From Thermoplasmatota archaeon (GTDB lineage Archaea > Thermoplasmatota > E2 > JACPAO01 > JAHFTW01): DNA of 64,000 bases. Location: contig JBFIHX010000005.1 in assembly GCA_041601615.1 (NCBI GenBank), positions 40,774-104,773 of the forward strand. Reading direction: 5' to 3'. A program made the position numbers and the translations under genes. Positions 3,831 to 60,100 of the stretch are shown here, piece after piece. The notes under the pieces were generated by a model. The model was given only the letters and a program-made list of their open reading frames with translations. It was not told where the DNA came from and made no database searches. The number at the start of each line of letters is the position of its first letter. The stretch's first letter is position 1.

Positions 3831-4474
3831 AATTCACCATTCGACCGGCCGTGGCCGAGGACATTCCCGACATCGCAGCCCTCTCTCGGGCAACGCTTCC
3901 GTACTTGTCGAGCAATCAGAAGGGGGTCGAATCCTCGGAAAGCGCCCACTGCCGCATCCTGAAAACCCCGGGAAGCATTGTCCTCGTCGCGGAAACGGAC
4001 GGGACCATCACGGGTTTCATGGCCGGCTATGGTTCACGCGCAAGCCAAGTTGCGGCCTATGGCGAGGCTCAACCGCCTCCGCTAAGCTTGCCTCCAGCGC
4101 TCTCGGCACGCCCCTTGGCCTTCGCAAAATACTGGAAACGGCGACTCCAGACGCGCTTGCGTCGGATTCGACATCGAACGTGCGCGCACATCTGCGAGGC
4201 GGCAGTAGATCCGTCGGTGCGCGGGGGCAGAACCAGCATCGCCCTTTTTCATGCTTGGAAGGATAAGGCCTGGCAACAAGGCAGTCGGGGCATTCATTGT
4301 CGCTGCATCGAAAGCAAGGCCCCGGGAGCCTTCCACATTTTGTTGCACCTCGGCTTTGTGGTGCAAGGCGTGCGCCATCTGGGCGACTCTGAGTTGACGA
4401 CGCTTACATTGCATCGTGATCCCAGAGCGAAATCCACTCCGCCAAGGCGAAAAGAAGGTGTGGGTAGAGAATAA
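3827..4474 (+). CDS. GNAT-family N-acetyltransferase
   Basis: MKFTIRPAVAEDIPDIAAL... with an acetyl-CoA-binding-like core. ATGA overlap with B2. Confidence 0.7.
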   Translation: MKFTIRPAVAEDIPDIAALSRATLPYLSSNQKGVESSESAHCRILKTPGSIVLVAETDGTITGFMAGYGSRASQVAAYGEAQPPPLSLPPALSARPLAFAKYWKRRLQTRLRRIRHRTCAHICEAAVDPSVRGGRTSIALFHAWKDKAWQQGSRGIHCRCIESKAPGAFHILLHLGFVVQGVRHLGDSELTTLTLHRDPRAKSTPPRRKEGVGRE

Positions 4475-10231: not shown

Positions 10232-10890
10232 TCACGATGACTGACGAATCTATCATTCAGACGGAAGAACAGCTCGCGGAGGTCGCCGCAGAGGAGACCG
10301 CACCCGAGGAGCCCGTGGTCGTCCTGCCCGAGACCCCCCTCTTTGGTAAGTACGGCGCCGACGGCATCGAGATCCGCGACGTGGGCCTGGCCCGCTACAT
10401 TCGCCTCGAACTGGTCGGCTTGCCCCACAGCAGTGCTCGCCACGCCAACCGACGCTTTGCCAAGCAACGCGTCAACATTGTCGAACGCTTGATCAACAAC
10501 GTCATGCGCTCGGCTGCGTACAACGGCAAGAAGGGCAAGGCGTACAAGGTCGTCGAGGACGCTTTCGAGCGCATCGCCGAGAAGACCAAGGACAACCCGA
10601 TCCAGGCCCTAATCCGCGCTGTGGAGCACTCCGCTCCTCGCGAAGAGGTCACCCGCCTGCGCTACGGTGGCATCAACGTCCCCAAGGCCGTCGATGTTTC
10701 GCCCATGCGCCGTCTCGACATCGCTCTGCGCAACCTCGCAAAGGGTGGACTGGCTGGCTCCCACAAGAGCACCAAGCCCGCCGCCCACTGCCTCGCCGAT
10801 GAGATCATGAAGGCCGCCAAGGGCGACCCCGGATCCTTCTCGGTCGGTAAGAAGGACGAGCTTGAGCGCGTCGCCAAGTCTGCTCGCTAA
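10228..10890 (+). CDS. rps7: 30S ribosomal protein S7 (uS7)
   Basis: Conserved uS7 sequence (...[35 protein letters not shown]...). GTG at 10228 overlaps the S12 stop; the first ATG is at 10237. Confidence 0.95.
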
Positions 10891-10960
10891 GCTCGCAGCC
10901 TAGTCGACGCACTCAAGCATGGCGTCTTCGACGCCCGCCAGAGTCGGCACCGCCGACTCC

Positions 10961-10996
10961 GGCGAATTGGAACGCGTCGCCAAGTCTGCACGCTAG
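10961..10996 (+). repeat. Echo copy of the rps7 3' end (encodes [11 protein letters not shown]) about 70 nt downstream of the real stop
   Basis: Real end is ...gacgagcttgagcgcgtcgccaagtctgctcgctaa ([11 protein letters not shown]). Echo is ggcgaattggaacgcgtcgccaagtctgcacgctag. Most differences are synonymous. Confidence 0.6.
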
Positions 10997-15785: not shown

Positions 15786-16910
15786 TTAGATAAGCGCCAT
15801 TTGGTAGCCGTTGCCGGTTGCGGCTTGGTGTTCAAGGGTGTACAAGTGGTACATGTGGCCCTCGGCAACACCCATGTTGTTGACGTCGAACACGAAGATC
15901 AGGAACTCGATGCCGTTGTTGATCACGGCAAAGTTGGCGCTGCTTGGGACCGATGCTTCGAGCACTGCCCGCTTGGCGCACGCGGTCAAGTCGGTGTCGC
16001 AGCAGCGGTTTGGATCCAATTGGCAGGGCACATGCATGGCCCAGGCGAGCGGCAGGACGGGAGCGTAGAGCACTTCGACGTTGATGGTGTCTGTGCGGCT
16101 CTTGCCGGGCACGCATCCAAAGAATTCAGCATCGTATTCTAGGCACACTTGTGCGCTGGCAATGGATTGGACGTAGCCCGTGTCGGCGGCGGCTTGCACT
16201 TGGAATCCGTGTGCTTCGTGGACGAACTCCAGCATGAATTTGATGACGATGTTGCAGATTCCGGGTTGCCCTACGATGCCGAAGCCGATGCGGTCGTCAC
16301 GGAAATCCATGAGATTTCCGGCGGTTTCGTTGTCGTGGTTGCCGCCCTTGGTGTAGCGCTCTAGGGAGTTGAGCGCCAGTGTGGGTGCAAGCATGTCGTG
16401 GACTTGCCCATCGATGCAGTCTGCTTGTAGGGTGACAAATTCCATGCCGCGCGAGGTTTGTCGCGCGGTCCACTGGTTGGTGCCTGTGGGTTGGGGAGCC
16501 TCGCCTGCTTCTCGATCCAAACTTGGGAACCATCCGTCTCCAGGTTCGATCCAGAATGCGATGGGTTTGAACATATCCGCAGTAATGTGGACCGTGCCGT
16601 TGACAAAGCCTCGTTGTTTTTCTTGCAGTTGCGGCAGCAGGGCATCGGTGGGTGCGTGGGCGATGCCGCTGTCGCGAAGATCTTCGACATCCTGGGCCAT
16701 GGGGTCGTCGGGGGTTCCCATGGTCAGATCCTGACCTATGCGGCTGATGGTCCAATCGATGGTCGTTTGGGATGTCTCAAGCACGGAGCGTTCCAGTTTT
16801 TGTGTGCTGGATGGGTTCAGCTTGAGGGCCACGCCGGTTACGAGTGGGACCGCGAGTGTGGCCGCGACCAGGAGGGCGAGTGTCATCTTTTGTTTCTGAT
16901 TCATGTTCAT
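15786..16910 (-). CDS. Secreted protein (374 aa), hypothetical; coupled to the giant protein by an ATGA overlap
   Basis: Signal peptide MNMNQKQKMTLALLVAATLAVPLVTGVA. Its ATG overlaps the TGA of the 4,717-aa ORF (caATGAacATGA on the minus strand). Confidence 0.55.
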   Translation of the reverse strand: MNMNQKQKMTLALLVAATLAVPLVTGVALKLNPSSTQKLERSVLETSQTTIDWTISRIGQDLTMGTPDDPMAQDVEDLRDSGIAHAPTDALLPQLQEKQRGFVNGTVHITADMFKPIAFWIEPGDGWFPSLDREAGEAPQPTGTNQWTARQTSRGMEFVTLQADCIDGQVHDMLAPTLALNSLERYTKGGNHDNETAGNLMDFRDDRIGFGIVGQPGICNIVIKFMLEFVHEAHGFQVQAAADTGYVQSIASAQVCLEYDAEFFGCVPGKSRTDTINVEVLYAPVLPLAWAMHVPCQLDPNRCCDTDLTACAKRAVLEASVPSSANFAVINNGIEFLIFVFDVNNMGVAEGHMYHLYTLEHQAATGNGYQMALI

Positions 16911-28900: not shown

Positions 28901-31045
28901 CTCGCCAGTGGCTTGTCCGAGCGTGGCCGTGGGGTCGTCGGCGCCGGGCGCTACTTTTTGGGTGGGGACTGCTGCGAGCCCGAGGGTGACGATGGCGATG
29001 TCGTCGAGTTCGTTGCCGTTCGTGTCGCGGGCTTTCGTGACGTCGGTTTCTCGCACTTGGACACGGAAGTGGGGGCCCGTGTGGTCGTCGACGAGTTCCA
29101 GGGCTTGCCCTTGTTCGTGCATGAACAGGCGCCATTGTTGTTCGGTGTTCAGGCTCCATTGCTCGGGTTGGGCATTGAGAGCGGCGACTACTTGGGGTCG
29201 GCCGACCACGACGTATTGCAAGAAGCCGGTGGCTTCGCCGAGCCAGGCGTCGTATGGCGAGAACTGGATCTGATCGCCTCGGGAAAAGACGCTTGGAAGG
29301 GGAGCCGGCGCTAGGTCGTCGGAGTCTAGGTAGCCAACGCCGCGGGTCCAGGGAGCGCTCTCCATGGGTTCGGCTCGCAGCGCTAAGACACCCATCAATT
29401 CCTGGGCGTGCCAGGGGCGGGAGGCGGTGTGTACGGATTGGCGCAGGGTCGCAAACGCCTGGGCCACGCGCAGGGAGGCGCCCATGCTGTTGTCCATCAT
29501 CGTGGCGGAGCGGTCCATGGAGGGGGCGCCCGTGACGGAAATAGCGCCGGCGGCGTCGGTGTAGTCGCTGTCGAAGGGGGACGGGGAGGCCACGAAGTCG
29601 ATGCCGGTGCCGTGGATGGCGGCGCGGCGTGAGGGGCCCAGGCAGCTATCGATGTTGGTTCCGGCGCGGTCTCCTGCGGCCACAGTGACCACACCAGGAA
29701 TGTCGTTGATGCCCACCATGGTCATGAATTGGCCGGGGATGGTGGCGCATTCGTCGGCTGGGGCGATGAAAGCGACTCCGGCGTCTCCGAGGTTGCGCAC
29801 CGCCTTTTGCAGGTCTTCATCGAATGCGAGGTCGGCCAGATACGATTCGACTAGGGCTCGCAATCCAGGGGAAAGTGAGTCTTTCTTGGCCTTCAGAACA
29901 TCAGCAAGATCCTTTTCATTGGTGCCGCCGAATTGGAATCCGGTGCGCCAGACTTCCTCCAGAACACTAGTGACTCCGAGTTGCGCAAGTTCGTCTTGGT
30001 TCTGCCAGGTGTTGGAGCTACGCGGGTCGCCTCGGGCGTCCAGCATCGGGGTGTCGGCAAAATGGAACGCGGGTCGCAGACTGTTTTGGACATTGGCCGG
30101 CAGGTGGATGCTGCTGGGGAGTCCCCAGATTGCAACTTGGACGCCGTTTTGGAAGGCGCTTTTTGCGCTCAATTCGGCGTAGTCGAGGCCATTGCGGATG
30201 GCGTCCCGCTCCAGGGCTCCGGTTTGTTGGTCGATGGCGCCCACGAATAGGACTTGGAATCCGGCCTCGGAGAGGCTCTTGGCCAAGGCGTGTCCTACGA
30301 ATGTCAGCGGTTCGCCGAGGGCGGTTTTGTCGCCGCGGGATGCGAGGAACGTGCCGAATCCGCTCTTGTAATGGGGTAGGTAGGGAAGGGATTCTGGGTT
30401 GGCTAGCGTGATGCCGGCAAGGTCGTCTTCGTCCAGGAAATCACCGAACAACAGCACAATGGGTCGATCCTGCACGGCGCCGGCAAGGTGCTCTAGGGTG
30501 TCTACGGCTGCGTCGACGGGCGCGCCTTGATCCCGGGTCGAGGCGGTGGGGATCCATTCGAAACCAGTGGGGTTCCAGGTACGCTCATCCACTTCCTGTT
30601 GAACCTGCGCAAGCGAGGGAGCTTCGACCCACAGGGGGGTCATGGCGCGGTCCGAGGAGCCGTCGTTCCAATGCACTTCCAGAGCGAGGTAGTGAAGGCC
30701 CGGTGGCGTCGCGGTCCATGCAGCAACTTGCCCGCCGGGAATAGCTTCGCCGTCCACCGTCCAAGCCAGGGAACTGACGGAGTCGGCGGGGGATGGGTTG
30801 GCGCGAGCCGAAAAAACGGTCCCTTCTAGCCCCCAGCTTCGATCCACCGTAAATCGAGCCACATGCGGATCGCTTGCCACGTCTGACGCGGAAGGGGCCA
30901 GGTATGGAGCGTCGGCGCGGGATCCGGGCTCTGCCCCGGGCGCTTGCGCGATGGTCACCGTGGCGAACATGGGTAACACCATGGTCAAAACCAGCATGAT
31001 CGCAAGATTGGTTGCGGCACTCGTTCGGGGGGCGTTGTACTTCAT
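16907..31045 (-). CDS. Giant extracellular protein (about 4,712 aa) with a right-handed parallel beta-helix, many Ig/Big-like repeats and a C-terminal LamG/concanavalin-like region
   Basis: Uninterrupted 14.1-kb ORF. Signal peptide at ATG 31045 (MKYNAPRTSAATNLAIMLVLTMVLPMFATVTIAQA). Beta-helix repeats (...VRVRHCAFADQTLGILATGSDVRIHNTLFDRMLRSAAILHDSHGLVRDNTV...). No obvious C-terminal TM or PGF-CTERM anchor. Confidence 0.85.
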   Translation of the reverse strand: MKYNAPRTSAATNLAIMLVLTMVLPMFATVTIAQAPGAEPGSRADAPYLAPSASDVASDPHVARFTVDRSWGLEGTVFSARANPSPADSVSSLAWTVDGEAIPGGQVAAWTATPPGLHYLALEVHWNDGSSDRAMTPLWVEAPSLAQVQQEVDERTWNPTGFEWIPTASTRDQGAPVDAAVDTLEHLAGAVQDRPIVLLFGDFLDEDDLAGITLANPESLPYLPHYKSGFGTFLASRGDKTALGEPLTFVGHALAKSLSEAGFQVLFVGAIDQQTGALERDAIRNGLDYAELSAKSAFQNGVQVAIWGLPSSIHLPANVQNSLRPAFHFADTPMLDARGDPRSSNTWQNQDELAQLGVTSVLEEVWRTGFQFGGTNEKDLADVLKAKKDSLSPGLRALVESYLADLAFDEDLQKAVRNLGDAGVAFIAPADECATIPGQFMTMVGINDIPGVVTVAAGDRAGTNIDSCLGPSRRAAIHGTGIDFVASPSPFDSDYTDAAGAISVTGAPSMDRSATMMDNSMGASLRVAQAFATLRQSVHTASRPWHAQELMGVLALRAEPMESAPWTRGVGYLDSDDLAPAPLPSVFSRGDQIQFSPYDAWLGEATGFLQYVVVGRPQVVAALNAQPEQWSLNTEQQWRLFMHEQGQALELVDDHTGPHFRVQVRETDVTKARDTNGNELDDIAIVTLGLAAVPTQKVAPGADDPTATLGQATGESNPPSPWLLPGMYAGDITISTPNAASLRLPLSISVGTALDVHRFVAPDTPVPGTAVCLATPLNLKDLHEVRSTMMEINDHNVCAHWADTDAAGIARFHASLPLSYDIVPFFSPYFEEKTKDVSTPDASVSGGATNTMGPRAYPQRPDSIALTAPRGDLWQLAIETPSVDWQELLTTGVNVDPSEYQEIPLPMFQIDPNNLRLPEVSYPLPLVDPRLPSQDTSETPELLPTYPLVYYGIERSYPLATAVHWRYLDNMEGDHFASIPASITPSTVASLHQLPNPLYGLYGTPIPGLDGGLQTASPDRLPLALGTAQDTLKGSTGNDPPTALFARPGQTALPMRTGPAADSCDLGAGHGASASTVRNLLYSGNSAAHIDALLAAGTTDGIPDQLVLRMEPSNAAVLGLQPTLPACSKMYTFNVPQPNEETVMTHEFDAHLEAAILVVCIEVTEAECRIIVPTSDGDGVYILEKKPTDLPRDVSDRMFEDRNSTPVATSGTTIPGLSDPALGDTVSLSRSGHVLMQSRQRSHDRDHGFITYTIIPFGLTSSGFLDPLLAHLASIDALSDIRFDGSSSIGQASALDLVREAAEDQMLPLAYAQLDRPALALDAWGYRDSFVHEPLADSQDLPRVDASDANLAGERWAAADAYLAPIHPNVDRARFARGIAYWDTETQTPDVDAMSSAGYAWIQPEFFEANVQVWDDDKILDTAPGRLEVRSADGAMLVASEACARDLPSNALRCLDVLEEGTGWTSKADGSGAYDPNLGSTIIRPRDTGFVDGTASGWQADWAKHLATPLFATATNYATAVAANPAVDANALEWFAPATVRVDRSYLSDMHQDTSFLLGTHHRTCEERHSDSQVPWNLESTPRWMTTCPWTSTGSNRWDQEIGTADTANDNLLWGSNNGGWTTLETGTNVTWTRDGVRCQTAPWETFTASTTASQRIAAIEAYYAARGATVHNVSAFQDPLPTGTNCGDTNGWHYQLEATMDFHGPRQALWNDMGRTVHPLWHPGTFAVDLDNWIACKGGRPVNGAACNTNHPIEQAWSALAGTNHATTYQDETGTHALVVDGKALAMTVFGLGKGTPMTYKLDGTTHTLTTRDDRLQHVATVPVDYDPDSWFSSSGTHSEFEAFYRTQWMSGADDAELLEALRDVVALFAKNVRDHLEANPYWTNVAGQKVPHPAAAADSFRFDAGDLSALGHMGHEGRSVGAKDAAITSSQIYGRWNPDHLVRDETGTVQTTKTTTADGETCWIDPSTDHDTAPHLEREISHTLPWNGGPAGTLHNETRNGATGATPPTRVGLWCTNEYGQTVPARTERETLPMRLADTPRSNTPITPFLASRSITPAAPGLGLQGFDVRPLIEQTLLEIAGAADSIPRTDLNPVPVTAIKITPLNSSSQETPLGASPILPLAHIEIDADLALAGLVLAHEYDLPTGTHAQFMAQQGTGPWQPLAARAAPGFAGDSEGSRLAFLDVTHLAPQFQLATQLVGDDWANATWNIHRIMPTPVTSNGDPIRVAAYQGDLSTAPFLSDLTLTQLEFHTGPILLDQDLVIPAGDERTFTGVDFVASDCGGRTCTLQVQGILHLINATLAPAAGLNGFPVHVTGTLQGTGVRAQGLAAGIEVRGGTLDLADCWIVRPGHLGILAAHATVRVRHCAFADQTLGILATGSDVRIHNTLFDRMLRSAAILHDSHGLVRDNTVTEARQSGFSVTGLSGASDMLLWNNRITDTAVGIALEAVEDRIQTPNPFTPTTPAAARDRVQENTINAATTIRTGTFANPTQGNNTLLAALTAPGTSGGQTQALSHNGTPWQPTDIAALAATIAADGMIPASDVDLAAPADANVRLDIHTAATVQQVRLQGTFYNTSVDLPEATTLDALITALQALNTTDRTGLLGTPGRIATVEVQNPNGEATHNFQFTTGTESRVLWTVTHVDTGSGWQEAPAEQTKAASIHNTLQWPLVTQYAYLVRDLTFDTLDDLLVTAQNRSAATLHPGNLAGLPHTLLPDGTLAVHGNTSLIALGTDLEPGIRYEFATRTSTGQIDNQGLSSERLVKLPDVPEGVTIHIQGRAVDPTGTTGPWTGSRILVDRTRPVLELNAGCLSGSDAGIYYRSYDPRGNWGTDPAYRASGIAELQVLATGAISNQTYPLLNPTFNDQQNLWTLPPEAYVDGESYSIQGHIIDHAGHAAIASIQNVVVDTSGPRLLGLGSTEGLLPDPNSTTPSYLGTKDLAPDGSLQVQFLVDDRPIDAERTHNCGIEEATLEYRVSGAGIWRPLDHQSPTIGTATTVLTGTINSTVVQSVLGRHLEFRVWAKDRAGHQTENTTGRIIVDTEAPLPLNIHAGDFLCLGPNNNQPIEWGAKDWKPSGSASAYEPSGIKQARLIMVHLNRTMEVLATIHHTANELNLESHQFDALTRDQIAKTFLVVDAQDRAGNGMQYTPAYLQGLGATHFEALRQASYKIHFDNDAPQIRVNSNFNYGVGLWENYPNTHIPLPTNGQLPNKDLAFLYDLVEPAETCFVDQFRIHISDEGNYNQLANHTQNINDWSHAMQVKVPLLPSLVGNITAHIQVWDQANNTATKTVNLGDPDPNPPLLSPTLGPQGVCYRSGYGQFGYAMSDNQSPHYLNLREREQGLGGIWSLAQNNTIVDWSGDFPRIAAFHTPSGASRDVFYALRGADTAGNIATTNNSWGRASIDADAPELEWLQPTTTGFFDPTNGLQAQWQATDAALLHCNGVVSGSIHLTSPLGTTTAWNGSLSDTGLGAQAPPGEPFTLSHAELATYEGMPITFNGTVVDHAGWSTEQTIGPFIPDDTAPVIDPLPTLPLYTGPNGFLLAWTPIDPIPGPGRAASGIASSHAIASNGDPIFGGQTQAESGQPLMPPTTRSGATVNVSVQAIDNVTHETTYNLGSVQTDFDVPGYELIPKTTICSGPQTGPINVTYSGWDTGSGLDDLRLLRVLSNLAVEPVHSTTEPHYAPEWSENATIDPWQWGEDIYLLLVDGYDMVQNGEHWTQVQLQNMPEEERNILLSGATLVVVDRRHPLGNPLPGLDGFFREVGNNIQAMGEAIGYRPIIAAGQLVSGGCEAITFELFLQTTDGSDTEPIQTQSGNQTLTIHETIHLNDTKYTRFHGQEVQLVLHGQDGAGHTWTNHSSAFVIDLVAPAIQDPPSLPALIGAAGINQTWTALDDQGAVDTGITWNAIELRPDANSTPLITAGPGTLLDIPAELENQALQAYVRVLDGAANELEIYLGQVEGDRTAPLLDANSINYESGTVGIDYTLAERNPSHILVQRTSTSGTSNETWTHASRYEDTTPPTNELATYTLCPVDQAGNPGTCQVLEIFVNAELPSIGLLSPSFAGTTRLGSGDLGLPVSGHVASVSTPGTTIWSSETDPGVFTLALEITPPHPDATMDIQATSRLGPISFTSVGSNRYEATIDLDEDQQEEVTLLVTANNGRSTAWRHSFHFAKDGIQPQVAQMQPQGNAHNYYNGYGPDGTSQKLGYTYGGSLHTPLAAHSALLTVTQWSNPGTNPGSTEFLALEGDEGDIAHLRYASNTLTLTVGNQSIAIGNITLKSQWYRFDLIAADGRMEAFLDETYLGSLPLSGPIRLESTRVQSASAMWTAPKVSLLDSDLRNLLEDQPILGGDGWQPIGQGTLQDTNTLGTAGGPTYLSIQPDSGHTLAAKSPPVDLPSSSHLTFRIKAKPAIEDPVFTVRNDDGDMMVRARVRYSTLEVEEGNGNWTILSSVDSRWHRFDIFIRHGHALIQRDQLSSVWVPLHADGPAATVEAGGGANTVDIDRLRIDMDTSRHDHTFVQPLTAFGWSETGSGLKTYAGSGFLGNGYLQVTGATSPGGRTYASFPTTGLGSKYTVEAAFAIGDSLNKPEHQAILSGLKSDDAPRWAVTLGPSQEIDCDAGDWRVHLYNGNTRISEGGVCLKNEKEWHFVRVEVTSTSVAVTLDDDTNSTFTSSITTGSDKRIGVGDVFPSPDAGRSGRGVGWYDDVVAFKRQ

Positions 31046-31140
31046 GGGGACACCGGCCAAGAAACGCCCACCGGGGGCCCGACGCCGCGCATGCGCGATG
31101 GTCGAGACCAGAAGGCTACCGCAACATCCGGGGATGCTAC

Positions 31141-31553: not shown

Positions 31554-33755
31554 ATGGGACGCAAGGAAGACAACATCAAGAAGGCCACCGAGATCATGCA
31601 CAATCTCGACGGCATCCGCAACATCGCCATCGCGGCGCACATCGACCACGGCAAGACGACGTTCTCCGACAACCTGCTGGCTGGCGCCGGCATGATGTCG
31701 GCGGACCTTGCTGGTGAACAGCGAGCCCTCGACTTCGACGAAGAAGAGCAAGCCCGCGGCATCACCATCAACTCCGCGTCCGCCTCGATGGTGCACACCT
31801 ACGAAGGCAATGACTACCTCATCAACCTCATCGACACCCCCGGTCACGTTGACTTTGGTGGCGACGTAACCCGCGCCATGCGCGCCGTCGACGGCTGCAT
31901 CATCCTGGTGTGCGCCGTGGAAGGCCCCATGCCGCAAACCGAGACCGTGGTGCGCCAGGCCCTTCGTGAGAAGGTCCAGCCGACCCTCTTCATCAACAAG
32001 GTTGACCGCCTCATCAACGAGCTGAAGGTCACGCCTGCCCAGATGCAAGAGCGCTTCGTCAAGCACATCAACAAAGTCAACCAGCTCATCAACGCCAACC
32101 TCCCGAAGGAATTCAAGGGCAAGTGGGGCGTTCGCATCGAGGACGGCACCGTCATGTTCGGCAGTGCCTACCACAACTGGGGCATGTCCGTTCCCTACAT
32201 GCAAAAGCACAAGATCGGCTTCGCCCGCATCTTCGAACTTTGCCACGCCAACGACGAGAAGCAACTCGCCAAGGAATGCCCCATCGCCGATGTTGTACTG
32301 GACACCGTGGTTCGCTCCCTGCCGAGCCCCAAGGTCGCCCAAGAATACCGCATCCGCCACATCTGGCACGGCGACCAAGACAGCACCGCAGGCATCGACA
32401 TGCGCGAAGCCAAGAGCAAGGGTGTCACGACCTTCATGGTCACCAAGATCATGATGGACCCCCACGCTGGTGAAATCGCCGTCGGCCGCCTCTTCTCCGG
32501 CGCCCTGACCCGCGGAGACGAACTGTTCATCGCCGGTACCAAGACCAAGAACCGCGTCCAGCAAGTCGGCATGATGATCGGCGCCGACCGTGTGGCCGTC
32601 GACAAGATCACCGCCGGCAACATCGCCGCCGTCACCGGCCTGCGCGATGCCATGGCCGGTATGACCCTCACCAGCGACACCGAGATGGAGCCCTTCGAGC
32701 GCATCATCCACGTCAGTGACCCCGTCGTCACCGTCGCTGTGGAAGCCAAGAACATGCGCGACTTGCCCAAGCTCGTCGACACCCTGCGCAGTGTAGCCAA
32801 GGGTGATCCCAGCCTGGTCCTTTCGATCAACCAGGAAACTGGCGAGAACCTGATGAGTGGCATGGGTGAACTCCACTTGGAAATCATTCAGCACCGCATC
32901 GAGCGCGACTACAAACTGGAGATCATCTGCTCCACGCCCATCGTCGTGTACCGAGAGAGTGTCTCCGCTACCAGCCCATACCCCTTCGAAGGCAAGTCCC
33001 CCAACCGCCACAACCGGTTCTACATCACCGCCGAACCCCTAGACGAGGCGATTGTCAAGGGCCTGCACGACAACACCATCCCGAGCGAAGCCAAGAAGCA
33101 CGCCAAGGAAATCGAGTCGATCATGTACAACGAGTACGGCTGGGAGAAGGACATGGCCAAGAAGGTCAAGGCCATCGACGGCACCTGCATGCTCGTGGAC
33201 GCCACCAAGGGTATCCAGTACCTGCACGAGACCTTCGAACTGATCACGGAAGGCTGGAAGGAAGTCATCAAGGCCGGCCCCCGCGCCGGCGAACCGGTCC
33301 AAGGCGTCCTGTTCAAGCTGACCGACGCCAAGCTCCACGAGGACGCTGTCCACCGCGGCCCCGCGCAAGTGATTCCCGCCGTGCGCAACGCCACCTACGG
33401 CGCCATGACCACGGCCAAGTCCATCCTGATCGAACCCATGCAGAAGGCGGTCGTCACGACCCCCGACGACGTCATGGGCAACGCCACGCGCGAGTTCCAG
33501 AGCCGCCGCGGCCTCATCCAGGACATGCAACAGGAGGGTGATTCCACCACCATCACGGCCAAGACCCCGGTCGCCGAGATGTTCGGATTCGCCGGCGCCA
33601 TCCGCTCCGCAACGGGCGGCCGCGCCATCTGGTCCACGGAAAACCTAGGCTTCGAAGTGCTCGACATGGCCCTTCAGGACAAGGTCACGCGCCAAATCCG
33701 CGAACGCAAGGGCCTCAAGCCCGACCCGTACCCGCCTGAGTATTACGCTGAGTGA
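31554..33755 (+). CDS. fusA: Elongation factor 2 (aEF-2)
   Basis: GTP-binding motifs AHIDHGKTT, DTPGHVDF, NKVD. Full-length 733 aa archaeal EF-2. Confidence 0.95.
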   Translation: MGRKEDNIKKATEIMHNLDGIRNIAIAAHIDHGKTTFSDNLLAGAGMMSADLAGEQRALDFDEEEQARGITINSASASMVHTYEGNDYLINLIDTPGHVDFGGDVTRAMRAVDGCIILVCAVEGPMPQTETVVRQALREKVQPTLFINKVDRLINELKVTPAQMQERFVKHINKVNQLINANLPKEFKGKWGVRIEDGTVMFGSAYHNWGMSVPYMQKHKIGFARIFELCHANDEKQLAKECPIADVVLDTVVRSLPSPKVAQEYRIRHIWHGDQDSTAGIDMREAKSKGVTTFMVTKIMMDPHAGEIAVGRLFSGALTRGDELFIAGTKTKNRVQQVGMMIGADRVAVDKITAGNIAAVTGLRDAMAGMTLTSDTEMEPFERIIHVSDPVVTVAVEAKNMRDLPKLVDTLRSVAKGDPSLVLSINQETGENLMSGMGELHLEIIQHRIERDYKLEIICSTPIVVYRESVSATSPYPFEGKSPNRHNRFYITAEPLDEAIVKGLHDNTIPSEAKKHAKEIESIMYNEYGWEKDMAKKVKAIDGTCMLVDATKGIQYLHETFELITEGWKEVIKAGPRAGEPVQGVLFKLTDAKLHEDAVHRGPAQVIPAVRNATYGAMTTAKSILIEPMQKAVVTTPDDVMGNATREFQSRRGLIQDMQQEGDSTTITAKTPVAEMFGFAGAIRSATGGRAIWSTENLGFEVLDMALQDKVTRQIRERKGLKPDPYPPEYYAE

Positions 33756-33786
33756 GGGCGCAGCCCGAACGGGTGTAATACTCAGG
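33735..33786 (+). terminator. 12-bp stem hairpin formed by the fusA 3' end (cctgagtattac) and a downstream complement (gtaatactcagg)
   Basis: Arms at 33735-33746 and 33775-33786 are exactly complementary, with the loop containing the stop codon. Confidence 0.35.
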
Positions 33787-33829
33787 AGCGAGGCCCTCGG
33801 GCCGAGCGTCGCTGCGGCCCACTTGTGGG

Positions 33830-33859
33830 CCGTATGCGCCTGAGTATTACGCTGGGTAG
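33830..33859 (+). repeat. Echo copy of the fusA 3' end (encodes PYAPEYYAG*), about 75 nt after the true stop
   Basis: Real end ccgtacccgcctgagtattacgctgagtga versus echo ccgtatgcgcctgagtattacgctgggtag. The echo could also pair with the 33775-33786 arm. Confidence 0.55.
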
Positions 33860-33900
33860 GCGAATTCGCGGCCCTGGGCGGCGGAATTGGACCGCCTCGA

Positions 33901-33947
33901 CCCACCCTTTTTCCTCCCTCTCCTCCCCCGCTCCTTCCCCCTTCGTT
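33901..33947 (+). terminator. C/T-rich tract between the fusA echo and aIF2-alpha
   Basis: cccaccctttttcctccctctcctcccccgctccttcccccttcgtt. Confidence 0.2.
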
Positions 33948-33974
33948 TATGACCAACCTGTCACTCGCCGAATC

Positions 33975-34775
33975 GTGGCGAAGCTGACAGAATTCCCGGA
34001 AGAGGGCGAACTGGTCGTCGGGACCGTGACGAAGGTCCAGAACTTCGGGGCGTTCATTGCACTGGAAGAATACCCGGGCAAGGAAGGCTTCGTTCACATT
34101 CGCGAAGTCGCCAGCGGCTGGGTCAAGCGCATCCGTGACTTCGTTCGCGAGCAGCAGCGCGTGGTCTGCAAGGTCCACGGCGTCAACTCCAAGAAAGGCC
34201 ACGTCGACCTTTCCCTGAAGTCCGTCAACGACCACCAGCGCCGCGAAACCATCCAGCGCTGGAAGAACGAACAGAAGGCAGACAAATTGCTCGAGATGTT
34301 CGCCGAGCGCATCGGCAAACCCGTCGAAGAAATCAGCGACCTCGTCGCCCGCCCCCTCCTCGACGTCTGGGAAAACCTGTACGATGCCTTCACCGAGGCC
34401 GCCGAATACGGCCACCAAGTGTTCATCGATGAGAAAATCGAAGCCGACTGGTCCGAGGAATTCGTCGCATTTGCCGCCGAAAACATCCAGGCCCAATTCG
34501 TCGAAGTACACGGCTTCGTGGACGTCCACAGCACCGCCCCCGACGGCGTCAAGGCCGTTCAAAAGGCGCTCACCGACGCGGAGAAATCCGAATTCGACGA
34601 CGTCATCATCAAAGTCACCTACAAGGGCGCTCCCCTGTACCGCATCGACGTACAGGCTCCCGACTTCAAAATCGGAGAAGAGCAACTCAAGAAGGCAGCC
34701 GACCGCGCGATTGCCATCATGACGAAGGCAGGCGGCACCGGCAGCTACCGCCGGGAACTCGAGGAGGACAAGTAG
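33975..34775 (+). CDS. eif2a: Translation initiation factor 2 alpha subunit (aIF2-alpha)
   Basis: S1 domain (EEGELVVGTVTKVQNFGAFIALEEYPGKEGFVHIREVASGW) plus a helical domain. Start unresolved: the frame is open back to an ATG at 33825, but its first 50 codons look non-coding. GTG at 33975 gives the canonical (M)AKLTEFPEEGE N-terminus. Confidence 0.85.
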   Translation: MAKLTEFPEEGELVVGTVTKVQNFGAFIALEEYPGKEGFVHIREVASGWVKRIRDFVREQQRVVCKVHGVNSKKGHVDLSLKSVNDHQRRETIQRWKNEQKADKLLEMFAERIGKPVEEISDLVARPLLDVWENLYDAFTEAAEYGHQVFIDEKIEADWSEEFVAFAAENIQAQFVEVHGFVDVHSTAPDGVKAVQKALTDAEKSEFDDVIIKVTYKGAPLYRIDVQAPDFKIGEEQLKKAADRAIAIMTKAGGTGSYRRELEEDK

Positions 34776-35851: not shown

Positions 35852-36415
35852 GTGAAAACCTCCAGGGCCAATACAAACCTTGAGTGCAACGGAATGGACG
35901 CCATCTTACAAGCGATTGACGAAGCCCTGGCATCAAAAAATTGGCATGCCGCGCTCTTCATGTCCCTTTCCGCCCCAGATGTTTGCGCTTCGCTATGCTC
36001 CGAAACCGGCAAGAGCAACCGAACCATGTATGCCGACTGGTTCAACGAATACGTCGGCAAACGCTACAAGAGGCAGGCTTCGGCGTTTATGGAAGAACAC
36101 ACGTTTCTCTCTGGCAACGACTGCTACGCGCTTCGGTGTACTGCATTGCATCGAGGGGACGTAGATATCAGCGATGAACGCTGTCGTGAAGCGCTTGACT
36201 CGTTCCACTTCACAACGACTGGATCGCACTGCAACCAAGTCGAGGGGGTACTCCAACTCGATGTTCGGACGTTTTGCCAGGACATTTGTGCAGGCGTCCG
36301 CGAATGGGAGTCGCGATGGATTTGCAACGATTCCCAGCATGAGTCGAAGAAGGCGCAGCTGCTTACGATCCACACTGGACCCAGCACCGTCGGCGGAATG
36401 GTGCGTTTTGGCTAG
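35852..36415 (+). CDS. Hypothetical Cys-rich protein in a lower-GC islet
   Basis: 187-aa ORF with no recognised motif. Local GC is visibly lower than its surroundings. Confidence 0.4.
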   Translation: MKTSRANTNLECNGMDAILQAIDEALASKNWHAALFMSLSAPDVCASLCSETGKSNRTMYADWFNEYVGKRYKRQASAFMEEHTFLSGNDCYALRCTALHRGDVDISDERCREALDSFHFTTTGSHCNQVEGVLQLDVRTFCQDICAGVREWESRWICNDSQHESKKAQLLTIHTGPSTVGGMVRFG

Positions 36416-36506
36416 CGGCCTAAGAGGTCACTCAACCCGACCTCTCCCTTCGATCGTGGCGGCTTACCTCAACCGTTAGGCAGTGGTGGAGTTGCGCTCC
36501 CCGCCG

Positions 36507-36863
36507 TTACGAAATGTATGAAATTACGAGCTTGCGAGCCCGTTGTCGGATGTCTCGGTGCACCTTGCCTTGCTTCTTCGTAATCCAGTGGTGCTTCATG
36601 GTCACGACGGTTTCGGTGTCGATGTGCGACTTCTTCCTCATTGACCCTTGATCCCAATGCGTGGGCTTGACCTCGACGAATGCCGCACCCGTTCCGGACC
36701 CACTTGTCATGGCACAGCAAAGATACTGTTCACCGTGCCCCGGGTATGCGTCATTGCTCAAGATGAGCCACGGTCGTTGGCCGCCAGTCACGAGTTCAGG
36801 ATCGTCGTCATGGTACGCGTCAGGGCCCCAAACGACGTCCCCCACGGAATACGGCGCAGACAT
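36507..36863 (-). CDS. PemK/MazF-like toxin (type II TA)
   Basis: VGDVVWGPDA...GQRPWLILSND...CCAMTSGSG...SHIDTETVVTMK follows the MazF/PemK spacing pattern (GD[IV]W...RP.L[IV].S...TS......T[IV]). Confidence 0.5.
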   Translation of the reverse strand: MSAPYSVGDVVWGPDAYHDDDPELVTGGQRPWLILSNDAYPGHGEQYLCCAMTSGSGTGAAFVEVKPTHWDQGSMRKKSHIDTETVVTMKHHWITKKQGKVHRDIRQRARKLVISYIS

Positions 36864-51151: not shown

Positions 51152-51161
51152 GCTGAATCAA

Positions 51162-51492
51162 AAAGGGTCAATCGTTCGGGCCGGGTCGCGCCTAGCCCGG
51201 ACGACCTGTGGCGTTAGAACCAGCTGCTTAGGTCTCGTTGGACTGCGATTTCCAGCGATTCAGAACGACCCCCAAAGGGGTCGATCGTTTGGGCCGGTTC
51301 GCGCCATGCGCGACCGACCTGTGGCGTTAGAACCAGCTGCTTAGGTCTCGTTGGACTGCGAGTTCCAGCGATTCAGAACGACCCCCAAAGGGGTCGATCG
51401 TTTGGGCCGGTTCGCGCTCTGCGCGACCGACCTGTGGCGTTAGAACCAGCTGCTTAGGTCTCGTTGGACTGCGAGTTCCAGCGAATCGAAGC
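51162..51492. repeat. Three tandem 113-bp units; the distal unit is the authentic polB 3' end (last 18 codons plus flank), so the polB 3' terminus is tandemly triplicated
   Basis: ttagaaccagctgcttaggtctcgttggactgcga(g/t)ttccagcga(a/t)t recurs at 51214, 51327 and 51440. Copies differ by a few SNPs, and each contains short GC-rich palindromes. Fills the whole regulator-polB intergenic space. Confidence 0.85.
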
Positions 51493-54406
51493 CAAAGGCT
51501 CCCTTCACGTAATTTTCAACCATTTCCTTGTACCATGCCCAGTCCACGGTGTGCTCCTGTTTGTGCTCGATGATGTAGTCCACGGGCCACATGTACTCAA
51601 TGGGCTTGATGCCGGACTTGCGGGGCTTCTTGATTTGAAGATTGTAGCCGCTCGTGGCAAGTTTTTGCTTGGTGTCCGTCTGTACTTTTGGATCGTGGTA
51701 CAGGGGCAGCGGGTCCTTGCAGATGACGAATTTGAATTTGCGGCCCTGTCGGATCGGCTCTCCCAGTAGGTGCTCGACGGCGATGGTGCGCACGGCGAAC
51801 GTGGAGAGGGTGCCGTCGGGGTTCGGCTTGTAGCTACGCACCGGTTGGACACTCTGGCGAAGCACCAGATCCTCCCATGGCGTCTCGTGGATGTGCACGC
51901 CGCTCATGACGTCCTTGGTGGCGCGCTTGATGGCGGTCTTCATGCGCTCGCGGGCGTCTTCTTCCTCGGTCCAACTGGACACTTCCAGGAGCGCCTTTTT
52001 CATGATGGGGTGCAGGAGTTTCTGGGCGAGCGGCGCCTTGTCGCTGCCCTTGAAGTTGTTGCCCTTGGTCTCCATCACCAACTCGTCGCCCTTGGTTTTG
52101 AACTTGAGGTAGTTCTTGTGGACGATGAACACCATAGCGTCGTACTGTTCCGCCTCCAACTCGAAGTCCTCGTAGTCGAGCTCCTTGCGCCAGCGTAGAT
52201 TCGCGGTCTCGACGGCCTTGAGCGCCTTATCTGGGAGTGTAATCCAGGAATCAGCGTCTGGTAGCTCGTCGGCGCCCACGGCGGCGGCCAAGTGCGGTAA
52301 ATTGCCGACGGATTTGCTGCATCCAAGGTAGATGCCATCCGTGTCGCCATACACCACTCGGATGCCTTCCTTCTCGAAGTCCTCGCGGGTCTCGTGCAGC
52401 ACTTTTTGGCCAATGGTGGTGATGTTGGCGCCGCCCCAGACGTTGAATTGACGGCACGAGACGTTGACTGCCACGAGAATGCCGTGGGTGCCAGCGTTGC
52501 GGGCGGCCTTGAGGCTCGCGTAGGTCATGTCGAGGATACGGATCTGGTCCTTGTCGGCGCCCGTGCGTTTGGCCTCGGCGCGGGCGTTCTTGACCTTCTG
52601 AATGGTGTCCAAAATCCCCGTCATGGCGGAGTTGACGAGGCCGTCTTCGGCGCGGTGCTTGACGCCGATCATCCAGCCACGGCCCCGCGTGAACGTCTCT
52701 GCGGGCAGGGGTCGGCGCACTTCGTAGCGACCCGATTCCGCAAAGCCAGGCTCCAAGTCCATGAGCCAAATCCAATCGTCCACTTTCTCGCCCTTGCGCG
52801 CCGGCTGCACGGTGTCGGCGGTGAGGTTCTGGGCCTTGAGGATCGTCGGATACATGGCGCCCACGTCTGCTTCGACGACGTGGAACCAGGGGACGAAGTG
52901 GCTCTGGAGGTCGCTGTCGGGCTTCAGCGTCAGGCCGCCGACGATGGCATAGCCGTGCGGGTTGTCCTTTCCGCCGTTGGAGCGGCTGATGACGCCCGGG
53001 TGCTCGACCCAGAACGGCATTTCGGGGCCCTGCTTGGCCACACGCAAGAACTCTTTCTCGGCAGCCTCGGGGCCTGCGGTGAGCACGGCCTGGGACACGT
53101 CTTCGCGGGTGGGAAAGTCGTCGTAGGGAATGGCGCGTTGGACGCTGCGAGCAATGCTCTGGGCGCGGCACGTGGCGGGCATGATGCGGCGCTGGCGGCG
53201 GGCACGCAGGAAGGCCATGTGGTCCCACATTTTCGTATTGCCACCGGTCAAGAGGCTGTCCAGGGGCATGTTGACGGTGAAGCCGAGCGGGAGCGCCTGG
53301 GTAAGGAGAATTTGCGTAATGCCGAGTTGCTCTTGCACGTCGTGCTTGTTGTACTGGAGTGTCTTGGCGTCGAGGCCCATGTTGGCGGCCTCCATGTAGA
53401 CGCGGCCCGGCACCTCGACGCCGAGCCAGGGAGCCAAGCCCTTGAGCGTGAAATCGTCATGGAAGAAGTAGAATTTGCGCGCCGCGTGGAATGTGTCCAG
53501 CGTCGTGGGGTGAAACACGCTGATGTCGCTGCTGCTTCCGAAGTGGAAGGAACGGTCTTTGCGGCTCCAGGTGTCCGTGAATTCGTTGAACCAGGACCGC
53601 ATGCCCTTGCTCAGGAACTCCTGCTTTTGGTCGCGGGCCAAGAACGACCCGATGCGGTTGCGGATTTGCAGGTTGTCGAAGCCCAGAACGTTGTGGCCCG
53701 CAATGATGTCGTGCGTCACCGATTTTTGGGTGAACTGCATCAAGTTGTCCAGTTCATCATCCTCGTTGTGCGCCACCAATTGGACGACTTCCTTGCCGAG
53801 GTAGTCTTGGTCCATGTCCGTGAGCCGGAAGTCGAATGCCTCCGTTTCCAAGTCCTTGCTTGCTTCGTACTTGACGTCGAAATCCGCGTACCCAATGACG
53901 TCGATGGGGATCTCCTTCTTGCCCGAGCCGTACTCCGTGGTCTCGATGTCGTACGTCAAAACGGAGAGCTGTGCCGGCTTGCCTTTCGTGTCCCAGAGCC
54001 ACCAGTCATGCTCGGCGCCAAGGTCTCCAAGGGCGCGCTCGATGTAGGGAATGTCGTGCTCGGCTGTGTAGAAGCCGTGGTCCCAGAACAAGCGGTCGGA
54101 CACTTCCGGCACCCAGTACGGCCGCTTGCAGGTGACGGGAATCACCTTGCGGCTGCGGTTGTGGTCCCAAAACGACTGGTATGAGAGCGGTTCGCCCACT
54201 TCCAAGACTTTCGACAGGTCCTCTGAGTTCGGGTCGCCGCCGCGAGCCTCATCCACTGCCGCAAGCAACCGAGTGCGAGCATCCGCGACCGATTCGTCGC
54301 CCCGGGGCCATGCCAGGAAGGCCGGCGCGTGCAGTCCCGCCAGGGGTTGCGGGTCCCGTCCCTGCCAAAACAGGTGGGTGTTGGAGGCGTTCAGCAGCGG
54401 CTGCAC
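51440..54406 (-). CDS. polB: DNA polymerase B (family B replicative polymerase, no intein)
   Basis: Exonuclease and polymerase motifs (...DVGAMYPTILK..., ...YGDTDGIYL...). 988 aa. GTG start at 54406. Confidence 0.9.
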   Translation of the reverse strand: MQPLLNASNTHLFWQGRDPQPLAGLHAPAFLAWPRGDESVADARTRLLAAVDEARGGDPNSEDLSKVLEVGEPLSYQSFWDHNRSRKVIPVTCKRPYWVPEVSDRLFWDHGFYTAEHDIPYIERALGDLGAEHDWWLWDTKGKPAQLSVLTYDIETTEYGSGKKEIPIDVIGYADFDVKYEASKDLETEAFDFRLTDMDQDYLGKEVVQLVAHNEDDELDNLMQFTQKSVTHDIIAGHNVLGFDNLQIRNRIGSFLARDQKQEFLSKGMRSWFNEFTDTWSRKDRSFHFGSSSDISVFHPTTLDTFHAARKFYFFHDDFTLKGLAPWLGVEVPGRVYMEAANMGLDAKTLQYNKHDVQEQLGITQILLTQALPLGFTVNMPLDSLLTGGNTKMWDHMAFLRARRQRRIMPATCRAQSIARSVQRAIPYDDFPTREDVSQAVLTAGPEAAEKEFLRVAKQGPEMPFWVEHPGVISRSNGGKDNPHGYAIVGGLTLKPDSDLQSHFVPWFHVVEADVGAMYPTILKAQNLTADTVQPARKGEKVDDWIWLMDLEPGFAESGRYEVRRPLPAETFTRGRGWMIGVKHRAEDGLVNSAMTGILDTIQKVKNARAEAKRTGADKDQIRILDMTYASLKAARNAGTHGILVAVNVSCRQFNVWGGANITTIGQKVLHETREDFEKEGIRVVYGDTDGIYLGCSKSVGNLPHLAAAVGADELPDADSWITLPDKALKAVETANLRWRKELDYEDFELEAEQYDAMVFIVHKNYLKFKTKGDELVMETKGNNFKGSDKAPLAQKLLHPIMKKALLEVSSWTEEEDARERMKTAIKRATKDVMSGVHIHETPWEDLVLRQSVQPVRSYKPNPDGTLSTFAVRTIAVEHLLGEPIRQGRKFKFVICKDPLPLYHDPKVQTDTKQKLATSGYNLQIKKPRKSGIKPIEYMWPVDYIIEHKQEHTVDWAWYKEMVENYVKGAFGFDSLELAVQRDLSSWF

Positions 54407-57780: not shown

Positions 57781-58098
57781 ATGGTCCAAGCCGCATGGAT
57801 GAAACAGGCGCTGCTAGCGGTCGTCCCCGACGCCGACGTGCACCCCACGGACCTCACCGGAGGCGGCGACCACTGGCACGTCGTCCTCGTCGCCGCATCC
57901 TTCGAGGGCCAACGCAGCTTCCAGCGCCAAAAACCCATCCTGGCCGCCATGACGCCCTACTTCCAAACCGGCGCCGTCCATGCCCTCGACCTCAAATGCA
58001 TCACGCCCACGGAGCTGGCGGACAAATTTGAGGGAAAGCTGCCCATTCCGTTCGTGCCGCACCAACAAGGCGAAGGGATGCACCCGAACGACTGGTAA
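57781..58098 (+). CDS. BolA-family protein
   Basis: ...GGGDHWHVVLVAASFEGQRSFQRQKPILAAM...GAVHALDLKCITPTE fits the BolA fold signature. Confidence 0.6.
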   Translation: MVQAAWMKQALLAVVPDADVHPTDLTGGGDHWHVVLVAASFEGQRSFQRQKPILAAMTPYFQTGAVHALDLKCITPTELADKFEGKLPIPFVPHQQGEGMHPNDW

Positions 58099-58298
58099 CG
58101 CGCCGATTCCACTCGTTCGAGCCGACGGCTAGGTGCGCCGGAACCCGAACGCGGGGCATGGACCACGTCAACTTCGAAGAAATAGGCCTGTTTTGGAACA
58201 CGCTTTGGGCTGTGGGGCTGGCTCTGGTTGCACACCACGTTTTCGTGTGATATGTGCCGGGGCTGAGACTTATCGCGTATAAGTGCCGAGGTGTTGCA

Positions 58299-59475: not shown

Positions 59476-59859
59476 ATGGACATCCCAATGGCCGGTGCTC
59501 CCGCCGCCGCCCCGACTGCCAACTTCGCCCTCACGCCCGAGCAAAAGCAGGAGTGGGACGACCTCATCGCCAGCAACGACCTCGTGTTGTTCATGAAGGG
59601 CACCCCGGACGCGCCCCAGTGTGGCTTCAGTGCCCGCGCCGCCGGCGTGCTGCAGCACCTGGAGCGCCCCTTTGCGCACGTGAACATGTTCGCGCAGCCG
59701 GACCCGCGACAAGCCATCCAAGCCATTGCCGAGTGGTCCCAATTCCCGACCCTTCCGCAGGTCTACGTCAAGGGTGAACTCATCGGCGGCAGCGACATTG
59801 CGTTGGAGATGTTGGAAAGCGGCGAACTGAGTGAGATGCTGGGCGAAGCCCAGGATTGA
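59476..59859 (+). CDS. Monothiol glutaredoxin (CGFS type, Grx4/GrxD-like)
   Basis: CGFS active site (GTPDAPQCGFSARAAGVL) and a conserved C-terminal helix. Confidence 0.8.
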   Translation: MDIPMAGAPAAAPTANFALTPEQKQEWDDLIASNDLVLFMKGTPDAPQCGFSARAAGVLQHLERPFAHVNMFAQPDPRQAIQAIAEWSQFPTLPQVYVKGELIGGSDIALEMLESGELSEMLGEAQD

Positions 59860-60044
59860 GCGAGGGAGCCGCTTTCTTTGCTGCTGTGCCGCCAGGTGCA
59901 GCACGCTGGAGAGTGGCGAACTGGAGGATGTGTTGGGCGAAGCCCAGGATTGAGCGAGGAAGCCGCTTTCTTTGCTGCTGTGCCGCCAGGTGCAGCACGC
60001 TGGAGAGTGGCGAGCTGGAGGATGTGCTGGGCGAAGCCAGCTAA
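59860..60044 (+). repeat. Two tandem copies of about 94 and 91 bp, each ending with an echo of the grx 3' end (LESGELEDVLGEAQD* and LESGELEDVLGEAS*)
   Basis: The gene end ...ttggaaagcggcgaactgagtgagatgctgggcgaagcccaggattga recurs as ...ctggagagtggcga(a/g)ctggaggatgtg(t/c)tgggcgaagcc(caggattga/agctaa) at the end of each unit. Confidence 0.8.
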
Positions 60045-60100
60045 ATCCGTCCCCCGCCCGCGCCCGCAGCGACCAAGTACCCTTGCCGCAAGTGGGCGCC

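Follow-up and report, generated by a model that had tools for sequence, protein, structure and literature searches.

Why would the end of a translation gene be written three times in a row, twice in the sense orientation and once inverted? This question is raised by the 3' end of fusA, the gene for archaeal elongation factor 2 (aEF-2), in a GC-rich archaeal DNA stretch of 64,000 nt from a member of the Thermoplasmatota, referred to here as the window. In a first-pass annotation made from the letters alone, the last fusA codons were described as one arm of a hairpin around the stop codon and as echoed further downstream (an A-A'-A arrangement), which was read either as a terminator/antiterminator-like switch in front of the next gene, aIF2alpha, or as a 3'-end echo scar. 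We show that this arrangement is a 104-nt insertion in the fusA 3' end, by which the old gene end, its stop codon and the native flank were pushed downstream. As to the nature of the insertion, we favour, with about even confidence, a small, recurrent and probably horizontally spreading gene-end replacement cassette that leaves a displaced-3'-end scar. No earlier report of such a class was found in the literature searched.

Layout of the fusA gene end

The fusA gene (31554..33755, forward strand, taken from the list of open reading frames, ORFs) codes for 733 amino acids and ends in a TGA stop codon at 33753-55. Homologues of its product are 57-100% identical to the window protein and carry EF-G/EF-2 Pfam domains; proteins from Thermoplasmatota metagenome-assembled genomes (MAGs), which come from sand, sediment and groundwater, are 83-96% identical to it. 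Look-ups of the exact EF-2 and S7 sequences of the window gave no recorded protein. The loci of these relatives are labelled here with L-numbers, and all of them are MAG contigs.

The last 28 nt of fusA (33726-33753, CCGTACCCGCCTGAGTATTACGCTGAGT) form a direct repeat with 33830-33857 (CCGTATGCGCCTGAGTATTACGCTGGGT), with 25 of 28 positions matching and a spacing of 104 nt. The first copy belongs to the live gene end, A1 (33726..33755, forward), which codes for PYPPEYYAE followed by the TGA stop, and the second to the echo, A2 (33830..33859, forward), which reads PYAPEYYAG followed by TAG (33857-59), lies out of the fusA frame because of the period of 104, and has no start codon in its own frame. 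Between the two stands an antisense arm, A' (GTAATACTCAGG, 33775-33786), able to pair at 12 of 12 positions with each of both copies. When up to one mismatch is allowed, CCTGAGTATTAC has three matches in the 64 kb, all of them at the fusA end, for an expectation of 0.04, and none of 100 shuffles gave three. The inverted copy is likewise significant, both in the comparison of loci with and without an echo (p=0.003) and in a test of 36 gene ends of the window (p=0.000).

The predicted fold of 33715-33900 (z = -3.8 versus shuffles) contains three hairpins on the forward strand. The first, HP0 (33735..33786), joins the last codons (33735-49) to the antisense arm (33772-86, including the perfect 12-mer at 33775-86) in a helix that reaches 15 bp if G-U pairs are counted, and its apex of 22 nt holds the fusA stop codon and a mini-hairpin. 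The second, HP1 (33788..33807), is a small hairpin with the core GGCC CUCG GGCC (33792-33803) and a conserved linker, GAGCG. The third, HP2 (33814..33833), is a near-perfect palindrome, GCGGCCCA-CTTG-TGGGCCGT, that abuts or overlaps the start of the echo. The hairpin arm around the stop codon and the second copy of the gene end are thus where the first-pass annotation had put them; what did not stand is the picture of a solitary hairpin, since HP1 and HP2 sit between the antisense arm and the echo.

An insertion that displaced the original gene end

The closest relative in which this region is available is L004, whose aEF-2 is 96% identical at the amino acid level and whose fusA is also followed by aIF2alpha and then by the gene for Nop10. 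The two sequences align base for base except for one clean gap of 104 nt, and the single gene end of L004, with its TAG stop and its flank, aligns with the echo of the window and the flank of that echo. The unit absent from L004 corresponds to A1 plus 33756-33829, the exact placement of the indel inside the direct repeat being arbitrary. A second, independent pair behaves in the same way: L129 has 139 nt more than L128, the native end of L128 aligns to the echo of L129, and the insertion begins directly after the invariant block ..CGCAAGGGCCT (the same block as ..AAGGGCCT). Because the native ends of L004 and L128 align to the echoes, it is A1, A' and the hairpins that were added, and the echo A2 is the displaced original, still contiguous with its native flank. 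The reading as a 3'-end echo scar is therefore supported. As for conservation among relatives, the inverted arm does recur in echo-bearing loci, and it is absent from the nearest relative, L004.

Since every sequence involved is a MAG contig, strain mixing or a mis-joined repeat might be suspected as the source of the echo. Such an assembly artefact is nevertheless very improbable. The 28-nt repeat is far below assembler k-mers and the 76-nt spacer is unique; moreover, the same design appears across studies and assemblers (k99, k141, SPAdes NODE), and independent assemblies (L088/89/90; L080/92/93) reproduce the complex fusA flanks without change.

No support for a switch in front of aIF2alpha

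The antisense arm can serve either copy of the gene end. The minimum free energy structure, with A1:A', has -96.8 kcal/mol, and the enforced A':A2 form has -94.8 kcal/mol, so that the two competing helices are nearly isoenergetic; when A1 is blocked, A' is predicted to pair with A2. The alternative pairing with the echo is hence physically possible, and the layout resembles attenuators in having two mutually exclusive helices that share one arm, the first of them overlapping translated codons. Contrary to attenuators, neither helix contains a terminator or a ribosome-binding site, and the element is not conserved together with the gene that it would regulate.

The putative signals for aIF2alpha lie further downstream. 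The native 3' flank (33860..33912, forward), orthologous to that of L004, holds a hairpin and a T5 tract (33908-12); oligo-T is an archaeal termination signal, and this tract would be the true fusA transcription stop. Beyond it, a block at 33946..33977 (forward), nearly identical in L004 with one difference, comprises the TATA-like motif TTTATGA (33946-52) and, 23 nt further on, the GTG start of aIF2alpha (33975), whose identity was confirmed by Pfam. To judge from the sequence, this block probably acts as an independent, near-leaderless aIF2alpha promoter. Both the T5 tract and the TATA-like motif are conserved in L004, and the T5 tract and the aIF2alpha start fall outside both helices; in neither fold is a terminator or a start site involved. 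A scan for bacterial-type promoters and hairpin-U terminators gave nothing. Nor does the element travel with aIF2alpha: among the lineages compared, this gene follows fusA only in the window and in L004, L004 keeps the gene order without the element, and the other carriers have other downstream genes. There is thus nothing for the two helices to control; the element looks like a scar, and the proposed switch is not supported. The whole cassette would lie inside the fusA 3' untranslated region (UTR), upstream of the oligo-T stop, leaving aIF2alpha uncontrolled; the hairpins may contribute to the stability of the 3' UTR.

A functional RNA device could be imagined in which the terminating ribosome melts A1:A' and frees A' for the echo, thereby coupling aEF-2 translation to termination, read-through or mRNA stability. 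Such a device would profit from conformers lying within 2 kcal/mol of each other, from the relocation of A' to A2 once A1 is blocked, from a stop-at-apex architecture conserved in 10 inserts and from a conserved linker, GAGCGGAC. We consider it improbable, as no effector is apparent, neither form occludes a terminator or a start site, the nearest relative does without the element despite the same gene order, and the downstream genes vary among carriers. In addition, the arm pairs poorly with the echo allele of L069 (an AGC versus TCT serine codon), in L069, L010 and L129 it fits the new gene end only, and several copies are decayed or interrupted (L001, L087, L092).

Recurrence at fusA and rpS7

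The element is not unique to the window. Eleven inserts of this layout were found, eight behind fusA in seven MAG lineages and three behind rpS7. Relatives with echoes of their own fusA end are L001, L002, L003 (with two, i.e., an array build-up), L010, L085 and L129; decayed or partial fusA echoes occur in L087, L092/L080 and L088-90, and about a dozen lineages have none. Besides the window, rpS7 cassettes are present in L069, which belongs to the same MAG as L004, and in L016, and were not seen in L006, L007, L012 and L128. On the EF-2 tree the echo trait is patchy. Within the first 70 nt past the fusA stop of L088, L089 and L090, two short partial echoes (GGAGCCGTGTCCCGCG and GGAGTCGTATCCCGCG) of the gene-end part GGAGCCGTATCCC were noted, each preceded by GT(C/G)TCACGC, with sequences identical in the three independent assemblies.

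The rpS7 cassette of the window (10864..10996, forward) consists of a live end at 10864-90 (ERVAKSAR*), an antisense arm from ~10895 (p=0.001 for the inverted copy), two hairpins and an echo at 10970-96, with a period of 106. The same plan is shared by all 10 inserts that were folded: the last 6-13 codons and stop, an imperfect inverted copy, one or more hairpins, and then the echo. In all 10 the stop codon lies at or near the apex of HP0, and HP2 is a near-perfect palindrome with a 4-nt loop; the small hairpin HP1 is missing in L016, L001, L003 and L085, and a short G-rich tail precedes the echo in L002, L129, L069 and L010. Inserts measure ~55-140 nt, and the direct repeat, 28 nt in the window, ranges over ~18-45 nt.

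The antisense arms carry indels and mismatches. A significant inverted copy was obtained at 8 of 11 echo-bearing fusA/rpS7 loci (p<=0.033), six of these at p<=0.003 and two more weakly (L003, 0.029; L016, 0.033), and fusA loci without an echo gave p>=0.049. Among the 36 gene ends tested in the window, inverted copy and echo occur together only at rpS7 and fusA. A scan of the window for short-range direct repeats returned four that straddle a stop codon, where ~0-1 would be expected by chance, namely those of rpS7 (period 106), fusA (104), a family-B DNA polymerase gene (113; 2.9 copies) and a glutaredoxin gene (94; 2.4 copies), and none elsewhere in the window apart from protein-internal repeats.

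The module between the antisense arm and the echo

The part of the insert that lies between A' and the echo, of which HP1 forms the left half and HP2 the right half, follows the pattern GGCC-N3-GGCC, linker GAGCGGAC, HP2 and T(T/A)GGGG, with a core of ~50 nt. This module is homologous across fusA lineages and also to the rpS7 insert of L069. That insert is a different cassette at the same rpS7 spot as the one of the window, and its module matches that of the L002 fusA insert (z=10, with ~36 of 44 aligned bases identical by manual count); this is the single cross-gene case of the same element at unrelated insertion sites. Within fusA, the modules of L002 and L010 match with z=10.4, and those of the window and L002 share 22 of 24 bases. 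The single-stranded linker is conserved, and all 12 HP2 pairs show compensatory changes across lineages, which, like the perfect palindromes, can also be explained by copying at the DNA level. Because the module ends flush (..T[T/A]GGGG) against three different echoes, it behaves like a defined element end. A covariance model, R1, built from eight module copies, matches the window at 33784-33838 with 45.6 bits.

Searches for a wider family of the module or for a known source were negative. No other copies of the spacers were found in the window or in the loci; matches to IMG/VR viral contigs were about as many as estimated by chance, with no match to R1; Rfam gave no match at E<=1 in the window region and only a sub-threshold chance match in five related loci; a scan for tRNA and tmRNA (ARAGORN) gave nothing; and the 76-nt insert has no ORF.

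Several origins of the spacer were tried and set aside. It is not a tandem duplicate of the native flank, to which it shows no similarity (p=0.2); the polymerase array, in contrast, can be traced to such a duplication (81.6% over 49 nt), as can, weakly, the rpS7 spacer (p=0.006). A derivation of the module from the reverse complement of the IRERKGL codons was suggestive by eye and in most cases not significant, with p=0.012 in L002 and 0.056-0.74 in the others. A single sequence family behind all four echo sites of the window was rejected, as was, by inspection only, an archaeal bulge-helix-bulge intron, for which the helix geometry is unfit.

In L001, the fusA echo (~4186-4225) has CAG in place of its stop and is split by a perfect palindrome of 28 nt (GATTCCGGACCTGCAAGCAGGTCCGGAT) that lies between direct repeats of 6 nt, GACGCG. 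This palindrome resembles the HP2 core (weak model match, E=0.12) and gives the impression of a tiny palindromic element inserted in a separate event.

Gene ends and echoes as alleles

Over the 11 pairs of gene end and echo, 26 codon differences are synonymous and 3 are non-synonymous, whereas neutral drift after a local duplication predicts ~65% non-synonymous ones (P=1.2e-9). The echo peptide is identical to that of the gene end in 8 of 11 pairs, the stop is kept in 10 of 11, and an indel occurs only in L001. Ordinary translation of the echo is unlikely, and its translation in frame or as a small ORF was rejected: L002 is the only case with a period divisible by 3, and a start codon is not consistently present.

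In L129, L010 and L069, the new end and the echo differ at 4-6 codons, all synonymously and including an AGC/TCT serine switch; the nearest alleles of the new ends look foreign, and A', read by eye, follows the A1 allele and not the echo. The echo of L129 has its closest matches among native ends from the same clade, and the new end is closest to other lineages. No such signal is evident for the window cassette, in which A1 and A2 show three differences and each is close to being the nearest allele of the other. The replaced part is preceded directly by a conserved anchor, IRERKGLKPEPY, with near-invariant codons, in front of the variable tail PYxxxYYAE. A recombination breakpoint was sought in L001 by sliding identity, and the signal was too noisy to place one. 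These patterns suggest that the cassette (A1, A' and the module) often has a history separate from that of the resident end, which could reflect import by recombination anchored in IRERKGLKPEPY or an echo that is renewed time and again through excision, reinsertion or conversion. At any rate, the class affects essential genes and carries an unexplained selection-like signature.

The three variable residues of the EF-2 tail take many forms (PAS, PPE, DAS, DPS, TAE, TAA, PAE and others). Echo-bearing lineages mostly have non-PAS tails; L129, with PAS, also has an echo, so this correlation is not strict.

Proposed mechanism and alternative origins

The cassette brings its own last nine codons and stop (A1), their inverted copy (A') and the conserved two-hairpin module. 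We propose that elements of this type constitute a family of ~55-140-nt gene-end replacement cassettes with fast turnover in this Thermoplasmatota clade. Recombination, with the conserved coding block directly before the variable tail as its anchor, would carry them from one lineage to another, as C-terminal displacement at miniature scale, and they would be lost when the short direct repeats recombine and the sequence between them is deleted. Each gene probably acquired its first cassette through a fold-back duplication, direct plus inverted, around a small palindromic module.

Several observations weigh against this proposal. No recombinase, reverse transcriptase or Cas1 is present nearby in the Pfam-scanned ORFs, including the neighbours of fusA, and the proposal does not account for how a cassette would come to match a new gene in both A1 and A'. 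The rpS7 cassette of the window has the same design as the fusA cassette and an unrelated sequence, and the polymerase and glutaredoxin arrays have no inverted arm. The sampling was biased to fusA and its neighbour genes. In 218 kb of clade DNA, only a fraction of any one genome, the R1 model recovered none but the fusA and rpS7 sites from which it had been built, with one copy in the window, rather than many copies dispersed in one genome as in miniature inverted-repeat transposable elements (MITEs) or repetitive extragenic palindromic (REP) sequences. Finally, A1 and A2 of the window differ at 3 positions only (2 of them non-synonymous), and over the 75 nt before them the window does not differ from L004, so that the window cassette may have arisen by a purely local duplication.

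This last point leads to the main rival explanation, a local mutational scar, in which a fold-back template switch copied the gene end once inverted and once directly, and the result was neutral, inherited vertically and lost by deletion. Short-range template-switch mutations of the quasi-palindrome or fold-back type are known to create hairpins (PMC8794818, PMC7954356) as well as apparent compensatory changes (PMC8794818). The inserts resemble their products in the inverted copy of adjacent sequence, which is the template-switch signature, in their perfect palindromes and in an apparent covariation for which selection is not required; the inverted copy of L001 and L003 is collinear for ~45 nt up to the palindrome centre, and the near-nearest allele relation of the window A1 and A2 would fit as well. 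However, the module is shared across genes and genomes, being found behind rpS7 of another genome, and the spacer past A' matches neither the native flank nor, except in L002, the reverse complement of the gene. Coding-competent echoes, with their 26:3 synonymous bias and no indels in 10 of 11 cases, are not expected of a neutral copy, and A' tracks A1 instead of A2 in three lineages. For these reasons we regard a local scar as rather unlikely.

The coding competence of the echoes could also be accounted for by a new kind of miniature mobile element, gene-end cassettes of ~100 nt that insert in the last codons of conserved genes, each with a spare copy of these codons and a stop embedded in a hairpin; the echo would then be kept coding-competent by frequent precise excision and reinsertion or, less likely, by skipping at the RNA or ribosome level. 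If such reversible insertion is true, the 26:3 synonymous bias of the echoes is its selection signature. We put this forward only tentatively.

Comparison with known systems

For the gene-end replacement cassette that we favour, the closest concept is C-terminal displacement. In rhs, contact-dependent inhibition (CDI) and type VI secretion system (T6SS) effector loci, this process leaves orphaned 3' ends and has been proposed to proceed via homology-facilitated illegitimate recombination (PMC5361080, citing Jackson et al. 2009). In both cases a conserved 5' anchor is retained, an incoming 3' end with its flank takes over, the old end is kept downstream and arrays are possible. Contrary to the toxin loci, fusA is a housekeeping translation gene and there is no cargo gene; the cassette swaps 6-13 codons only, for the same or nearly the same peptide, and amounts to ~100 nt with a fixed hairpin design and an inverted copy of the coding end.

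Small repeats at gene ends are also known from REP sequences and bacterial interspersed mosaic elements (BIMEs), Rickettsia palindromic elements and the mycobacterial MIRU-VNTRs (mycobacterial interspersed repetitive unit-variable number tandem repeats), which are ~50-150 nt long, hairpin-rich, sometimes tandem or placed over stop codons, and strain-variable. Unlike elements of the REP, MITE or MIRU type, which have many copies per genome and do not contain the last codons of the host gene, the 64 kb of the window contain a single module copy, and each insert is built on the end of its host gene.

A further candidate is a trace left at the 3' end of the aEF-2 gene by a casposon or some other large element that integrates by means of an integrase, in which the repeats would be a target-site duplication or att sites and the 76 nt a remnant. 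Thaumarchaeal casposons integrate in the 3'-distal part of the aEF-2 gene without altering it (PMC4046053), and the DNA that a family-1 casposase inserts can be as short as 7 nt or as long as 4 kb, with 13 bp being duplicated (PMC8464041). The likeness to these elements, and to those at the 3' ends of tRNA genes, is in the same target gene end, the intact gene and the direct repeats that flank the insert. The cassette differs in having no casposase, polymerase or terminal inverted repeats and in being too small to encode anything. No Cas1, integrase or casposon genes were seen among the ORFs scanned with Pfam, nor any convincing terminal inverted repeats (a weak internal inverted repeat of 9-10 nt was noticed by eye only), and no casposon genes were found near the polymerase gene. 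A direct repeat does stand at the expected gene end, with a length of 28 nt in the window and 18-39 nt in relatives (18-45 nt overall) that tends to exceed the 13-22 bp reported; the same design occurs at rpS7, and casposons do not come with an inverted copy of their target; furthermore, sizes are tightly grouped (55-139 nt), unlike random deletion remnants, and IMG/VR gave no match. An integrative element is accordingly a poor candidate.

Other repeats and neighbourhood

The two remaining stop-straddling repeats of the window look like plain tandem duplications, related to the cassettes and simpler in form. The DNA polymerase array (51161..51484, reverse strand) consists of 2.9 copies of a 113-nt unit that comprises the last 45 nt and stop of the family-B DNA polymerase gene (51440..54406) and its 3' flank; internal copies have a GACCCCTTTGGGGGTC hairpin where the distal copy has a T5 tract. 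The glutaredoxin array (59813..60046, forward) has a 94-nt unit in 2.4 copies. Because the live C-terminus reads ..GEAQD* and the most distal, presumably original, copy ..GEAS*, the insertion altered the last residues of the protein. The gene at 57781..58098 shows a borderline inverted copy of its end just past the stop (58096-58160; p=0.01) with a weak direct match (p=0.045), which may be a decayed cassette or chance. A more distant relative, L012, has a 165-nt intergenic tandem repeat with hairpins (GGGACCCCGCCCGTTTCCGGGCGGG..) at 1026-1260, upstream of rpS12, and a region of protein-internal repeats lies at 62600-62940 of the window.

In L128, rpS12-rpS7 and fusA are neighbours; here they are separated by an ORF of 4717 amino acids (16907-31060, reverse strand), so that the window genome has a split str gene cluster. 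Elsewhere in the window, an ORF at 35852-36415, with lower third-position GC content and no Pfam match, adjoins a MazF/PemK toxin gene (region 35852-36863), and a Fic/DOC gene is found within 58299-59375. Both regions may be accessory islands near echo-bearing genes.

Implications

If the cassettes move or are exchanged between lineages, they would provide a route by which uncultured archaea edit the 3' ends of even the most conserved translation genes, those for EF-2 and S7, while the genes stay functional. In practice, the inserts could then also serve to trace recombination and the history of strains among Thermoplasmatota MAGs. The proposed mechanism, if true, would mean that C-terminal displacement is not confined to toxin loci and reaches housekeeping genes as well. 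For annotation the inserts are a hazard of which gene callers should know, as the echoes resemble gene fragments and the hairpins resemble regulatory RNA. Lastly, echoes that stay coding-competent pose a puzzle about excision, conversion or recoding.

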